A stretch of 48,227 nucleotides of DNA from Planctomycetota bacterium. GTDB taxonomy: Bacteria; Planctomycetota; PLA2; JAEUHO01. Below the pieces are notes generated by a model. It worked only from the letters and a program-made list of their open reading frames with translations. It did no database searches and had not been told where the DNA came from. The DNA lies in NCBI GenBank assembly GCA_965223505.1, contig CBDCWP010000014.1:1-48227 (forward strand), written 5' to 3'. The translations under genes were made by a program, and so were the position numbers. Each line of letters opens with the position of its first letter. The stretch's first letter is position 1. Below are positions 18,511 through 23,147 of the stretch, one piece after another.

Positions 18511-19650
18511 TCACTCCGTGCCGTCGGCTTCCTGGACGAGACCGCGAACCTGCTTGATCAGGTCGCCCTGACCGAACACGAAGCTCGTCTTCGCACCGGC
18601 CAGCACTTCCTGCAGGAGCTCCAGCTCCTTCATGCGAGCGAGCACCGGGTTGTCCGCCAGCAGCTTGGCCGTGTTGGCCTGGCTACGCGCGGCCGCCGTC
18701 TCCTCGCGACGACGAATCAGGTTGGCCTCGGCCGCCTTCTGGGCCGTGATCACCTGGTTCAGGATCGTCTTCATGTCGCCCGGCAGGACGATGTCGCGCA
18801 GACCCACGCTGCGGACCGTGACGCCGAACGTCGCGGCGCGCTCGGCCAGGGCCTCACGCACCGTCGCGCCGACGGCTTCCTTGTCCGTCAGCAGGCCGTC
18901 CAGCGCGCGCGTACCCACGGCCGCCCGCAGTGCGAGCTGCGCGTCGCGGTACAGCGCCTGCTCCGCGTCGTTCGTCGCCTCGACGGACTTGACCGGGTCG
19001 TCGATCTGGTACGTCACGACGAGGTTCATGCGCAGCGTGACCTTGTCACGCGTCATGATCTCCTGGCCGGCGACGTCGAGCGTCTGCTCACGACGATCGA
19101 GCTCACGCGTCACGATGCGACCCGTCTGCTTCCAGTACGCGTAGCGACCGTGCAGCAGGCGCGTGACGAGCTCGTTGTCGCGGTAGACCAGGACCTCGGC
19201 GTACGGGTTCACGTTGACCGTTCCCAGGAACTCGCCGTAGCCCGGGTGTGCCAGGACGACCTCGAGCTGCTCGTGCTCGAAGCGGAAGCCCTCGATGTCG
19301 AAGACCTCGATCTTCACGTCGTACGGCTCCTTCCAGAACGCGTACAGGCCCGGGCCCAGGATCTGGAACAGACGGCCGTCACGCCAGACGAGTGCACGCT
19401 GCGTATCACGCAGGTCCACGACGTGCAGCGCGTCCGCCAGCGCCGGGTCCTTCACCAGGACCCGCAGCCACGGGTGAACGAGCGCCGTATCGAGCGTGTT
19501 CACGACGTAGACGAGGACCCTGCGGACGTTCAGCGGAAACGCCGGCAGCCAGTGCGTACCCGGCTGCAGGAGCTTGCGGAAGTCACCGCGCTGGAACATG
19601 AGGCCGCGCTGGTGCTTGAGGACGTGCTTGCGCTCGAGAAACAGGGCCAT
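18511..19650 (-). CDS. Slipin family SPFH/band-7 protein
   Basis: N-terminal LLxPGxHW/LGPGLYAFW repeats, GQEIMTRDKVTLRMN, QLALRAAVGTRALD, EANLIRRREETAAARSQANTAKL. Strong RBS AAAGGAGG upstream of ATG 19650. Confidence 0.9.
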   Translation of the reverse strand: MALFLERKHVLKHQRGLMFQRGDFRKLLQPGTHWLPAFPLNVRRVLVYVVNTLDTALVHPWLRVLVKDPALADALHVVDLRDTQRALVWRDGRLFQILGPGLYAFWKEPYDVKIEVFDIEGFRFEHEQLEVVLAHPGYGEFLGTVNVNPYAEVLVYRDNELVTRLLHGRYAYWKQTGRIVTRELDRREQTLDVAGQEIMTRDKVTLRMNLVVTYQIDDPVKSVEATNDAEQALYRDAQLALRAAVGTRALDGLLTDKEAVGATVREALAERAATFGVTVRSVGLRDIVLPGDMKTILNQVITAQKAAEANLIRRREETAAARSQANTAKLLADNPVLARMKELELLQEVLAGAKTSFVFGQGDLIKQVRGLVQEADGTE

Positions 19651-19730
19651 GGAGCACCTCCTTTCGAATCGTGGGTCCATGGGGGTCGTGGATGGCGGAC
19701 CGGAACCGCTCCGGTGCGCGAAGGGAAAGT

Positions 19731-20017
19731 GCGGGTTGCGAGGCCACCGGCTGGTCGGCCCCTGCGGCCCGGCGGACACGAAGTTCGAGGTTCGGTCCAT
19801 CGTCTGGATCGAACAGGTCCGCCGGGCCGCACCGCGTGGACGGCGCGCCGAGTCCCGCCTTCAGTGGGGACGGGTGGACGGCGCGTCGCAGGCGATGGGT
19901 GGTGAACCGGTATCCCTTCGTGTTCGAAGCCGTTTGGCAGGTGTCACGCCGATGTCGGCCGTCGAAACGGCGTTCAAGGGCGGGACGGGACGACGAGCGG
20001 CGCTACTCGCAACCCGC
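19731..20017 (-). ncRNA. Putative large structured non-coding RNA / leader upstream of slipin
   Basis: Nested perfect complementarities: 19731-19742 with 20006-20017 (12 bp), 19763-19777 with 19817-19831 (15 bp), 19852-19859 with 19979-19986 (8 bp), GCCGTTT/AAACGGC within 19929-19971. No credible ORF. Confidence 0.55.
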
Positions 20018-20039
20018 GTTGTCGGATGGCGCCCTTGCG

Positions 20040-20112
20040 GGCGAAGGCAGGACTCGAACCTGCAACCTCTCGATCCACCATCGTGTGCTCTAACCAGTTG
20101 AGCTACATAGGA
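20040..20112 (-). ncRNA. tRNA-like element 2 (D, anticodon and T arms present; no acceptor stem; GTG at the anticodon position)
   Basis: TA-GCTC-AACTGGTTA-GAGC-A-CACGA-TGGTGGA-TCGAG-AGGTT-GCAGG-TTCGAGT-CCTGC with canonical spacing. G at position 33. Positions 1-7 (TCCTATG) do not pair with 66-72 (CTTCGCC). Confidence 0.75.
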
Positions 20113-20181
20113 GAGAATGACGGGAGTCGAACCCGTGCTTCACGGCTCAGGCCGTGCGCTCTGCCACTGAGCTACATTCCC
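20113..20181 (-). ncRNA. tRNA-like element 1 (full cloverleaf, aberrant 6-nt anticodon loop, no encoded CCA)
   Basis: GGGAATG/CATTCTC acceptor stem, GCTC-AGTGGCA-GAGC D arm, CACGG-CCTGAG-CCGTG anticodon arm, ACGGG-TTCGACT-CCCGT T arm. Confidence 0.8.
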
Positions 20182-20667
20182 GGTAGTGGCCTCGCTTTCA
20201 TGCGAGTCACGACGCTGACGCTTCCGATGCTGTCGTCGGAACACTCGCAGTCGATACCGGAACGGCAGACTGTGGGCGCCGGCAGCACGCCAACGCGAAC
20301 TTCTACGCTCAGCGAATGCGTCCAGGCAATCGCTGTCGAGCGCTTGACGATGCGGCGACGGGTCGCAGCGGGTTCGCCGTGCGTGTGGGGTATGAGCGGC
20401 GTTTTGATGATTGCCTCACTGCGTTGCCTCCATCGCGCGGCCGCACGAGCCGGGCGCTGACTTTCGTCTAGGTCGCGAAACGGAACACCGGACATCGAAA
20501 CAACGGGACAGCGCTCCGCAGCGACGAGGAACAGACGAAGAGAACGACGAACGGGTTCCGCGGTTCGCGAGGTTTTTCTCGTCAGGAGGCGTAACCCGTC
20601 GTCCCGCCGAGGCGATGTTGGTCTGGGGGGCCCGCCGAGGGCGCTTGCGATCGCGATGCGTTCGCGC

Positions 20668-23092
20668 CTAGCCCGACGGACGCAGGTGCACGGTCTTCTC
20701 GACGTCGATCTCCTTCGGATCCAGATCGACCTGCTCCTCGTGCGTCTCGTACCCATCCGCGCTGATACGCAGGATGCGCTTGCCCGACGGCGCCGGCATC
20801 AGATACTCGCCGCCCTCCCTCGAACCGGGCCATGTCGACGCCGTCGAGCCTGAGCACCTCGATCTTGCATCGCTCGATCGGCTTGTCCGTCCCCAGCTCC
20901 TTCAGCAAGACCGTGAGATGGATGTCGACCGTGTCGGGGCTGATGCGCTTCAGCGCGACCTCCTGCTCGAACACGCCGTCGACCGGCTTCACCTCGACAT
21001 CCACCTCGATCGTCTCGTGATCGAGTCCCTCGACCACGAGCGTGTAGCGCCCGGCCTCCGCGATGCCGCCGTAGCGTTGCTTCTCCCGGTCGTAAGCCAG
21101 ATACGGAGCGCGCCGCTCTTCGCCCTCAGGAGGCTTCGCGCTGCAGCGGCAACGCTTCACCGGTTCGCCCGTCGCCGCGTCCTGCACCGTCAGACGCCAG
21201 TCCACGTAGCGAACGGGCAGCTGCAGCCGCACCTCTTCCGTCGTCAGGCCCTCATCGAACTGCTTCCGCGTCGAGCCGTAATAGGGAATCTTGCCGGCCT
21301 GCACCTCGACGGATGTCGTCCGCAAGTCCTCGGCGAGCTTCTCGAAGACGAATCGACCGTCGTCGTCCGAACGCGTCGAACGCAGCGTCATCTTGCGCTT
21401 GTTCGAGTTGAGGTACACGTACGCCTGCGGGACGATCTCACCCTCGGGGCCCACCACCACGCCTCGAAGCGTAACCGTTCCTTGTTCCTTGTAGTCGAGC
21501 GCGAAGTCGAGCTCCGTACGGCCCTGCGGCTTGACGACGACCGTCTTCGGCGGCGCTTCGTAGCTCCATAAGCTGACGCTGATCGTCTGCTCGCCCGCAG
21601 GGAGGCCCTGCAGCTCGTACGTGCCGTCCTTGCTGGTGCGGATCTGGTTGTAGCCGGCGATCACGTTGACGTTTCGCGCGGGGTTGCCCTGCGGGTCGAG
21701 GACCTTGCCGTACACCGTTCCCATCTCGCCGAACGAGAACGGCAACGTCACCTGCACCTGCGCCGTCGCGTTGTCCTTCAACAACACACGCACCGAGGTC
21801 GTCGCATCCAGGCCGCCGGGTCCGTTGAGACGGTTGTTGATGTTGCCCGCCACCGCGGCCCCGCCCGACGGCAACGCCTCGGCCTCGAGCGTCCCGTTCG
21901 CCGTCGTCTTGCCGACCTTGCGGATGTCGCCGAACGAAACCCCCTTCACGCCGACGAGGTCCGGCGGCGTCAGGTACACGTCGGCGTTCGGAATCGGGTT
22001 GCCGTCCTGATCGAGCACGGTCACCAGCAGGGTCGCCTTGCCCGCCGCGGGCGGCGCCAGCCCGAACCGCGTCCAGTGACCCGTCGGGCCGCCGAAGCCG
22101 CCACCGCCCATGCGGCGTCCGGGCCTGCGCTTCGGCAGTCCGAACGGGCTGCGCCGCTGCGCCGGCTCGACCGTGTCCCAGTCGACGTCCTCGTCGCCCT
22201 TCACCGTCGTCGCGGTGTCGTCCTCGCCGCCGGTCGTCTCGGCGGCGCCCCCTCCACTCGCGTGCGCCGCCGTCTCGTCGTCGACGGCCGGACGCGTGAG
22301 CGGATCCCTCAGCGATCCGGCGCCGCCCGGCTCGAGCCCGGCGGCGTCCCCGGTGCCCTCGTCCGCCACGCTCAGGTCCTTCGCGTCGCCGCTCCCGGTG
22401 CCGCTGTCGAACAGCGACGGGCCGAACCACACGATGCCTCCGATGAACAGCGCGGCGACGGAAACGACCGCCAACGACTTCGCAGTGACCTGATTCATGA
22501 CGTTTGCTCCCAGGGTGGTCAGGGAGGATCCATCGACCAGCGGGCGCCACGCCGCCAGCGGCATGAGCGCGGTCAGCCACGCCTTGCGGCTCCCGCCGTG
22601 CGCGTCGTCGAGCCGGCGCCTGAGCACCTGCAACCCGCGCTGCAGCTGGCTCTTGACCGTGGCCACGGGCCGCTTCGTGCGCTTCGCGATCTCGCGCGGC
22701 GGCCGCGCCTCGAAGTAGCGCATCCAGATGACCGATCGGTAGGGCTCGTCCAGCGTGCGTACGGCCCGCAAGACGGTCTGCTGCTCGTCGATGCGCGCAA
22801 GCACGTCCAACGTGGACGGCGTCGCTTCCTTCTTCGCCCCGGACTGCTCGCGCGCCTCGCGGCGCGACTCGGCGCGGTGCCAGCTGCGCGCGACGTTGCG
22901 GATCGCGCCCGACAGGCACGCCTTCACGCCGCGCCGCGGCCGCACCGCGCCCTCGAGCGAGCGCAGCGCGGCCTCCTGCACGACGTCCTCGGCGCTGTCG
23001 AAGTCGCGCACGAGGCTGCGCGCCAGCCGTCGAAGCTGGCGGGCCTGGAGCGCAATCGCTTCGGCGTCGGTCTGGGACGGATCGATCGACAA
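20668..23092 (-). CDS. ECF sigma-70 factor fused via a TM helix to an extracytoplasmic carboxypeptidase-regulatory-like repeat region (frameshift near 20815)
   Basis: Sigma2 (LRRLARSLV...AEDVVQEA) and sigma4 (LDEPYRSVIWMRYFE...EIA...ATVKSQLQRG), TM (LAVVSVAALFIGGIVWF), beta-sandwich repeats. The C-terminus continues in another frame (GEYLMPAPSGKRILRISADGYE...LRPSG*, stop 20668). TTG 23092 with GGAGG upstream. Confidence 0.8.
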
Positions 23093-23147
23093 TGGACCTC
23101 CACCCTTGGGTTCCCGCAGCGGGCCGTTCGGATGCACCCAAATCCTA

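Follow-up and report, generated by a model that had tools for sequence, protein, structure and literature searches.

A soluble Band-7 protein without a membrane anchor is a trait of the module that contains b7a-tRNA (band 7-associated tRNA-like RNA), a predicted noncoding RNA with a strong likeness to tRNA. This RNA was reportedly predicted by Burroughs and Aravind in Nucleic Acids Research (NAR) in 2016. The parts of Wang et al. (2018; bioRxiv 10.1101/312249) that concern this RNA state that certain bacteria encode RtcB beside a Band-7 protein and a predicted tRNA-like b7a-tRNA, that b7a-tRNA and YrlA are interchangeable in position and occasionally swap partners, and that b7a-tRNA is experimentally unvalidated; a model cited there derives YrlA from dimeric tRNA transcripts. 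Here we describe two abutting tRNA-like elements, E1 and E2, that lie upstream of a Band-7/SPFH gene in a 48,227-nucleotide stretch of DNA from a Planctomycetota bacterium (assembly GCA_965223505.1, contig CBDCWP010000014.1, positions 1 to 48,227; hereafter the window). We consider it likely that E1 and E2 are a tandem RNA of the b7a-tRNA class and that, with the anchor-less Band-7 protein, they make up a two-part module of the systems for RtcB/RtcA repair and spare tRNA arrays that serve in translation stress. The element fits best as a Planctomycetota variant of the predicted b7a-tRNA/Band-7 module, tandem in form and detached from RtcB.

Set against the description of b7a-tRNA in those parts of Wang et al. 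(2018), the locus is similar in that a predicted noncoding RNA strongly resembling tRNA adjoins a Band-7 gene, and in that homologous loci contain RtcB and RtcA. It differs in having two abutting units instead of one, in the absence of an adjacent RtcB in this genome and in its Planctomycetota carriers; in addition, the acceptor stem of E2 is cut to 3 base pairs (bp), the E2 anticodon is hypervariable while the loop frame and elbow are fixed, and in some relatives the module lies inside long tRNA arrays. A second system for comparison is the trn operon of Anabaena PCC 7120, an L-array that is described as co-regulated with rtcB and an HNH gene in the available part of Santamaria-Gomez et al. 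(2021; PMC8421152). The same-strand arrays of 9–21 tRNAs in relatives of our locus, which include or adjoin RtcB and HNH genes, are similar to it, whereas the window holds two degenerate elements and no array: an L-array has about 20 or more dense same-strand tRNA genes, and only E1 and E2 are present here. The terms SPFH, stomatin, prohibitin and 'band 7' do not occur in the available part of PMC8421152, nor do SPFH, 'band 7' and stomatin in that of the TrcR paper; the three tRNA-mimic families of a 2026 preprint are, in the part available, other RNAs. A full-text literature search returned no relevant report that joins a tRNA-like RNA with an SPFH protein.

Both elements lie on the minus strand, which the initial annotation had not specified, and the abutting non-decoding tRNA-like pair that it described is real. 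In a scan of the whole window, E1 (20112–20181) matches the Rfam tRNA model with 57.4 bits (E = 7e-10) and E2 (20044–20108) with 35.3 bits, over model positions 5–66 only; both exceed the gathering score of 29. A 3-nucleotide (nt) spacer, CCT (20109–20111), runs from the discriminator of E1 to E2. E1 is a complete cloverleaf with an acceptor stem of 7 bp that includes one G–U pair (GGGAATG/CATTCTC), a D arm (GCTC-AGTGGCA-GAGC), a T arm (ACGGG-TTCGACT-CCCGT) and an anticodon stem (CACGG/CCGTG) that closes a loop of 6 nt (CCTGAG); the discriminator, T, is followed by CCT instead of CCA. The paired acceptor stem with its G–U, the D and T arms, the 6-nt loop and the lack of CCA are as first described. 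ARAGORN labels E1 'tRNA-???', with an anticodon of two bases and no amino acid, and misses E2. In E2 the D arm and the T arm (GCAGG-TTCGAGT-CCTGC) are normal, the anticodon stem (CACGA/TCGAG) has one A·A mismatch and the loop of 7 nt (TGGTGGA) places G33 before a GTG triplet, G37 and A38. The GTG-G-A loop and G33 had been read correctly, and almost nothing is left of the acceptor stem: ATG/CTT alone occupies its position, with two of the three positions paired. Lacking a proper acceptor stem, E2 is predicted not to be charged. The elbow, said to be intact in both elements, is so: G18, G19, T54, T55, C56 and A58 are kept in each, together with a 15:48 pair that is G:C in E1 and A:T in E2. Of the 63 tRNAs assigned by ARAGORN in this genome 56 have an encoded CCA, which is found in neither E1 nor E2, and neither element has the set of features of a canonical decoding tRNA (7-nt loop, 7-bp acceptor stem and CCA). 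No close paralogue of E1 or E2 is present among the 63, the matches being generic D-arm and T-arm stretches of up to 23 nt. Logan contigs from four runs and two samples cover 19900–20350 with no differences, three of the four runs being a possible source of the assembly itself and the second sample being without 20062–20101; the assembly error that had been put forward as a possible cause of the oddities does not apply.

The fold was compared among relatives in the same order. A BLAST search of 41 related genomes returned one place, in genome G014, that spans both elements. A covariance model built from this locus and G014 was run over 29 genomes of the family and seven more tandem elements were accepted; a tenth member (G017), with its copy of the RNA just upstream of a Band-7 gene, was found later. 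The same search also returned many ordinary tRNA pairs. The covariance scores were 118–137 bits for the nine model-building members, up to about 102 bits for ordinary tandem tRNAs and 95.9 bits for G017, so that the model does not separate the family from tandem tRNAs and synteny is needed. In the nine-member alignment 95.5% of 314 stem cells are paired, compared with 74.5% in shuffled sequences and 35–46% when the partners are slid, and changes on both sides are found in 22 of 35 pairs. Covarying pairs account for all seven of the E1 acceptor stem, four of five in the E1 anticodon stem, all five of the E2 anticodon stem and three of five in the E2 T stem, while the D stems of both elements are invariant. 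The oddities of the two elements are also shared. The E1 loop is 4–6 nt long in nine of the ten members and its sequence differs among them, the E2 loop is 7 nt long in all ten, and the E2 acceptor stem is reduced to three positions in all ten, with perfect pairing in seven (GAC/GTC, GAG/CTC, GCG/CGC, ATG/CAT and GTG/CAC). In one relative E1 still resembles tRNA-Val(CAC) and is followed by CCA. Inspection of the ten members by eye, in place of a systematic scan, showed no consistent complementarity of the E2 anticodon loop to the E1 loop, the spacer or the 3′ flank. The comparison indicates purifying selection on the fold of the RNA. The proposal of the initial annotation that shape is selected and the elements are not decaying at random is borne out by the stem pairing, the compensatory pairs, the invariant D stems and the shared oddities; the arms are kept in related genomes and are not randomly degenerate.

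The RNA is linked to a single gene. In the window, the Band-7/SPFH (slipin/stomatin-like) gene encodes 379 residues at 18511–19650 on the minus strand (Pfam Band_7, 96 bits) and begins about 400 nt downstream of E2 on the same strand. Translation probably starts at the Met at 19650. The longest open reading frame begins at 19800, and orthologues align from about residue 50 of this long frame. The next same-strand gene downstream of the RNA is Band_7/SPFH in nine of nine loci, and the upstream genes differ in all nine (they include an ECF-sigma fusion, a sigma-54 activator, DUF4129, an acyltransferase, a methyltransferase, Lnb_N and LysM). No other neighbour of the Band-7 gene of the window is shared. 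A protein search (E ≤ 1e-30) across 40 genomes of the order identified a Band-7 orthologue in ten, each with the RNA upstream of it, and in nine genomes that lack the gene the best covariance matches are plain tRNA pairs such as Gly-Thr, Ile-Ala and Pro-His. RNA and Band-7 gene are always found as a pair, in neighbourhoods that otherwise vary. The protein has no hydrophobic segment (the maximum 19-residue hydropathy is 1.05, and 70 of 79 family members are below 1.6), from which it is predicted to be soluble and to have no membrane anchor. By sequence it resembles PH stomatin (E = 3.5e-19). The AlphaFold model, which has a predicted local distance difference test score (pLDDT) of 87.5 and begins with β-strands, aligns with the SPFH domain of mouse stomatin with a Z-score of 18.6 and a root-mean-square deviation (r.m.s.d.) of 1.1 over 109 residues; HflK/C, prohibitin, QmcA and erlin follow with Z-scores of 13–16.

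A wider survey used one genome per species and yielded 373 protein relatives; counts out of 80 refer to the best 80 of these, which are titled nearly all as Planctomycetota, Phycisphaerae, Phycisphaerales or Tepidisphaerales. The RNA model gave 198 matches in the 80 loci, 197 of them on the strand of the gene. Rohdeia mirabilis Pla163 is a candidate carrier, in which the gene is present with a weak match upstream (L157:3365–3498). A custom parser requiring a canonical D arm placed a tRNA-like element 326–842 nt (median about 450 nt) upstream of the gene in 66 of the 75 loci that have at least 700 nt of upstream DNA, including at least two (L132 and L151) in which it took a neighbouring tRNA-Trp. 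The loop is 7 nt long in 51 of the 66 elements, and among these 51 the canonical frame is retained, with C32 in 39, T33 in 43, a purine at position 37 in 50 and A38 in 46, around 27 different 'anticodon' triplets. Acceptor pairs counted consecutively from the T-stem side number three in 16 loci, four in 14, five in 11, six in seven and seven in five, and fewer than three in 13. A T-arm-like unit of the form GGGG TTCGAYT CCCC follows E2 in 19 of the 66 loci (three in the reverse-complement control), mostly about 26–35 nt after the E2 T stem and often behind a GNRA hairpin (L128, L130, L131, L097, L142 and others); GNRA-capped hairpins with differing stems follow E2 in 34 of the 66 (ten in the same control). 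Only about 17 of the 66 have a tandem E1, scored as a T arm that ends 10–18 nt before E2 position 8, two further cases being ordinary tRNAs. This makes E2 the universal part, with a second unit that varies, and the presence of a third unit after E2 in 19 loci implies a structured leader RNA of greater extent than the pair in this window.

The connection to RNA repair comes from the same survey. In 12 of the 80 loci the Band-7 gene lies inside a same-strand array of 9–21 tRNAs with a recurrent order: Lys, Lys, Thr, Arg, Asn, Trp, the tRNA-like element, Band-7, Gly, Cys, Ser, Glu, Ser, Tyr and Gln. An RtcB gene lies within those arrays (219–232 bits to PF01139), and within 4 kb of the Band-7 gene RtcB is found in 11 of the 80 loci (two of the matches being weak), RtcA in six and an HNH endonuclease in seven. 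The same truncation of the E2 acceptor stem, often GAG/CTC, is seen even within arrays in which the stems of the other tRNAs are perfect at 7 bp. A full-length homologue from Citrobacter freundii (L159, NZ_CP151862.1, 2948–6901; annotated 'slipin family protein') has 36.8% identity over 96% of the query. The gene order there, with a divergent rtcR, a 448-nt leader, the slipin gene and a nucleotidyltransferase gene, adjoining lysC, identifies the locus by sequence as an RtcR-controlled operon. Its leader contains a 15-nt T-arm-like hairpin, UGGG-UUCGAUU-CCCA, and no full match to the Rfam tRNA model. A RelE/ParE-XRE pair lies just past rtcR.

These observations suggest how the module may work. 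A non-decoding, tRNA-shaped RNA is predicted to be made just upstream of the Band-7 gene and in the same direction. E1, whose acceptor stem is full-length, could be excised by RNase P and 3′ processing in the manner of a tRNA. E2 would be neither charged nor decoding and would instead present an L-shaped handle, its elbow and anticodon-loop geometry intact, to the Band-7 oligomer, to tRNA-repair enzymes or to both, acting as an adaptor or as a decoy for damaged tRNAs. The pairing of E2 with the Band-7 protein would then be analogous to that of a Y RNA serving Ro60. E1 is thus probably a processable tRNA-like unit and E2 probably an uncharged handle or decoy. Several points weigh against assigning the pair to a module of this kind. 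This genome has a single RtcB, which lies on a different contig (C4), so that the repair link rests on the relatives. The E1–E2 pair as such is lineage-specific. The high stem pairing was obtained from an alignment fitted to the structure under test, and sequences derived from tRNAs pair by descent in any case. No RNA sequencing run is listed as containing 19600–20400. The mechanism, the transcription and the binding of RNA by protein are predictions from sequence.

If the assignment is correct, the locus offers a concrete RNA–protein pair for a role of soluble stomatin-like proteins in tRNA damage responses, and a module that is physically tied to spare tRNA arrays and RtcB in one phylum. In the parts of the literature available, tRNA mimics associated with RNA-repair systems (YrlA/Ro60 and b7a-tRNA/Band-7) are predicted to be widespread, the Band-7 branch never having been validated experimentally. 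The Planctomycetota form is the most tRNA-like among the loci compared, that of Citrobacter being only the short hairpin described above, and the comparison would identify the elbow and the anticodon-arm geometry as the parts needed, and the top of the acceptor stem and the identity of the anticodon as dispensable. The tandem layout also bears on the proposed origin of Y RNAs from tRNA dimers. A bolder reading, which we hold to be doubtful, is that this conserved dimer still represents the dimeric-tRNA stage proposed to precede the YrlA Y RNAs.

A purely cis-acting role is a serious alternative, although on balance an unlikely one. E1 and E2 would then belong to the 5′ untranslated region of the Band-7 mRNA and would provide signals for processing or stability only, with cleavage sites for RNase P and RNase Z and a 5′ end that is folded, as in the tRNA-like 't-elements' of plant mitochondria, and with no function as a free RNA; this partly overlaps with the b7a-tRNA-class assignment. 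The common strand and the fixed distance to the gene are consistent with a leader of this type, as are the array loci, where the gene is in line with tRNAs that need to be processed from a common transcript. The interval between E2 and the gene points in the same direction. A scan of 19500–20700 by consensus returned no terminators, and none lies between E2 and the Band-7 gene; a hairpin capped by a GNRA loop (CGCCC-GCAA-GGGCG; 20030–20043, minus strand) directly 3′ of E2 is followed by no T-run of the terminator type. The gap is conserved at the nucleotide level, as judged by tblastx, and contains conserved nucleotide motifs and no conserved open reading frame, the members with lower GC content having stops in all frames. 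On the other hand, a mere cut site needs neither intact D and anticodon arms nor the canonical loop frame found in the wider family, and the enterobacterial equivalent lies in an RNA-repair operon, which points to a function related to tRNA. A 3-bp acceptor stem such as that of E2 is expected to be a poor substrate for RNase P and RNase Z.

The variability of the E2 triplet raises the further idea, which we hold to be doubtful, that E2 is a fast-evolving 'bait' tRNA for anticodon-loop nucleases, its body and loop frame (C32, U33, purine 37 and A38) being held constant. The triplet would be free, or driven, to change and would track the host tRNA attacked by the toxins of each lineage, and cleavage of the bait on the Band-7 oligomer would signal to, or feed, repair of the RtcB type. 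Between loci with a four-fold-site difference of 0.18–0.37, the anticodon triplet differs by 0.5–0.81, the four flanking loop positions by 0.13–0.25, the T arm by 0.12–0.20 and the D stems by 0; these values rest on small numbers of close pairs (2, 4 and 23 in the lowest three bins), bias in GC content at third codon positions compresses the four-fold divergence, and the loci include at least two (L132 and L151) in which the element taken was a neighbouring tRNA-Trp. The comparison is suggestive only.

It is also quite improbable that the elements are decaying relics, the last pseudogenes of a lost tRNA array with no present function. Full arrays around the same gene in relatives, the resemblance of one E1 to tRNA-Val(CAC) with its CCA, and the broken decoding and charging parts would all fit such a history. 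Decay does not account for compensatory stem changes across genera whose Band-7 proteins are only 53–63% identical, nor for the invariant D stems, the intact elbow nucleotides or the truncation of E2 that recurs among otherwise perfect 7-bp stems in the arrays, and the genome holds no close paralogue of either element among its tRNAs.

The initial annotation also raised a possible permuted fold of the YrlA type. In a Y RNA of that type, T arm 1 would be joined to D arm 2 through a closed acceptor-like stem as one permuted tRNA-like domain, carried on a Ro60-binding stem. The RNA does resemble YrlA in being tRNA-derived and non-decoding, in its conserved T/D elbow and in its RtcB-type contexts, and the order of T arm, spacer and D arm across the E1/E2 junction is indeed present. 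The would-be outer stem pairs well in this one sequence, and the published model, in the part available, derives YrlA from dimeric tRNA transcripts. However, the match to the YrlA model (RF02553), 29.1 bits over 20155–20059, is far below the gathering score of 69 and the family was rejected. The whole genome, at 92.47% completeness, gave no match to TROVE/Ro60, while the same search found TROVE in two of 14 control genomes. The helices specific to YrlA are paired in 62%, 53% and 40% of cells in the nine relatives compared with 87–100% for the cloverleaf helices, which indicates two separate cloverleaves and not a permuted fold; both cloverleaves are intact here, and there is no conserved Ro-binding or closed acceptor stem. 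Dimeric tRNAs are a known source of false-positive matches to YrlA through the junction of T arm 1 and D arm 2, and only YrlA matches within 4 kb of Ro60 were taken, according to the part of Chen et al. (2014) available. A YrlA-type RNA is for these reasons very improbable. The initial annotation was close in kind nonetheless, the element belonging to a class that the available parts of Wang et al. (2018) treat as the functional counterpart of YrlA. Finally, although the acceptor stem of E1 is complete, its tRNA score is good and ARAGORN assigns anticodons to some relatives, it is scarcely credible that these are working tRNAs with odd features, such as a frameshift or suppressor E1, given the short and variable E1 loop in nine of ten members, the want of a proper acceptor stem in E2, the 27 E2 triplets in 51 loci and the absence here of the CCA that 56 of the 63 genuine tRNAs carry.

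Band-7 proteins have been linked in evolution to vaults, particles of the major vault protein (MVP) and vault RNA, and may have a cage-like role. The AlphaFold model described above aligns over residues 8–333 with residues 324–690 of MVP (Z-score of 12.4, r.m.s.d. of 9.5, 222 residues aligned). Like the vault protein it would have N-terminal β-repeats, an SPFH-like shoulder and a long helix, and it is paired with a small structured RNA. It is much smaller than MVP, however, its best matches are stomatin, HflK/C and prohibitin, with Z-scores of 15–18.6, and the likeness is one of predicted fold alone. In the model, residues 1–185 form repeated β-hairpin units, each similar to the start of an SPFH domain, and it is these that align with the MVP repeat region. 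Searches of phage genomes with the Band-7 protein gave only three weak partial matches, and no matches to the PADLOC models of anti-phage defence were obtained.

Several smaller features flank the tandem pair, all on the minus strand. A conserved upstream block (20211–20286; GCCGGCG..., a variable hairpin, GTGTTCCGAC..., GCGTC), aligned in nine relatives, may be a promoter/operator or a 5′ domain of the RNA. A consensus scan of 19500–20700 gave no sigma-70-type promoters, and by eye the conserved block fits neither a sigma-54 (−24/−12) promoter nor any known promoter type. In distant Planctomycetota loci, those with tRNA arrays included, the block lies directly 5′ of the tRNA-like element (E2). 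Its form, …CCGGCGGCG…, a variable hairpin and GTGTTCCGCGAC.CGGGTTC…, is seen at 20211–20286 in the window and also in L128–L131, L144, L149, L153 and others. Between the block and E1, a leader hairpin (CTCGC-ATGAAA-GCGAG; 20191–20206) is specific to this genome and absent from the eight other aligned relatives. Beyond the GNRA hairpin that follows E2, a short conserved motif, CGCGGGTTGCG (20006–20019), takes the form CGCGG[GA]TCGG[GA]GC in the alignment of nine; to judge from its sequence it may be a decayed T-arm-like hairpin, and the clear third T-arm-like unit of 19 of the 66 distant loci occupies its place. A single-sequence fold of 20210–20020 did not return the double cloverleaf (z = −0.45), a result that says little, as is common with tRNAs. 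For the 180 nt 3′ of E2 in nine relatives, RNAalifold gave only four weak pairs, from a poor alignment.

The same strand carries, immediately upstream of the RNA, an open reading frame of 851 residues (20582–23137, minus strand) that encodes an ECF-type sigma factor (Sigma70_r2 and Sigma70_r4_2) joined to CarboxypepD_reg and Ig-like domains; other genes are found there in relatives. In G014, the closest relative (L022, 520–742, minus strand), a match to group II intron domains D1–D4 (113 bits) lies about 750 nt upstream of the tRNA-like pair; it was obtained on L002, with positions common to L022. A strong and conserved hairpin, GGCCTCGGAGGC…GCCTCCGAGGCC, lies 150–250 nt upstream of the RNA in G042, G011, G008, G001, G041, G044 and G015 and is absent from this window and from G014; it is followed by a T-run in several of these genomes and resembles a terminator of the preceding gene. 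Elsewhere in the genome of the window (G000), ARAGORN reports two further 'tRNA-???' with four-base anticodons, catc and tcgg, at C13:102042–102132 and C21:479064–479147, respectively. Contig C40 of the same genome carries 11 tRNA genes in 1.1 kb (191174–192297, minus strand), several of them 2–9 nt apart and some unusually short (69–71 nt), in an order unlike that of the Band-7 arrays of relatives.

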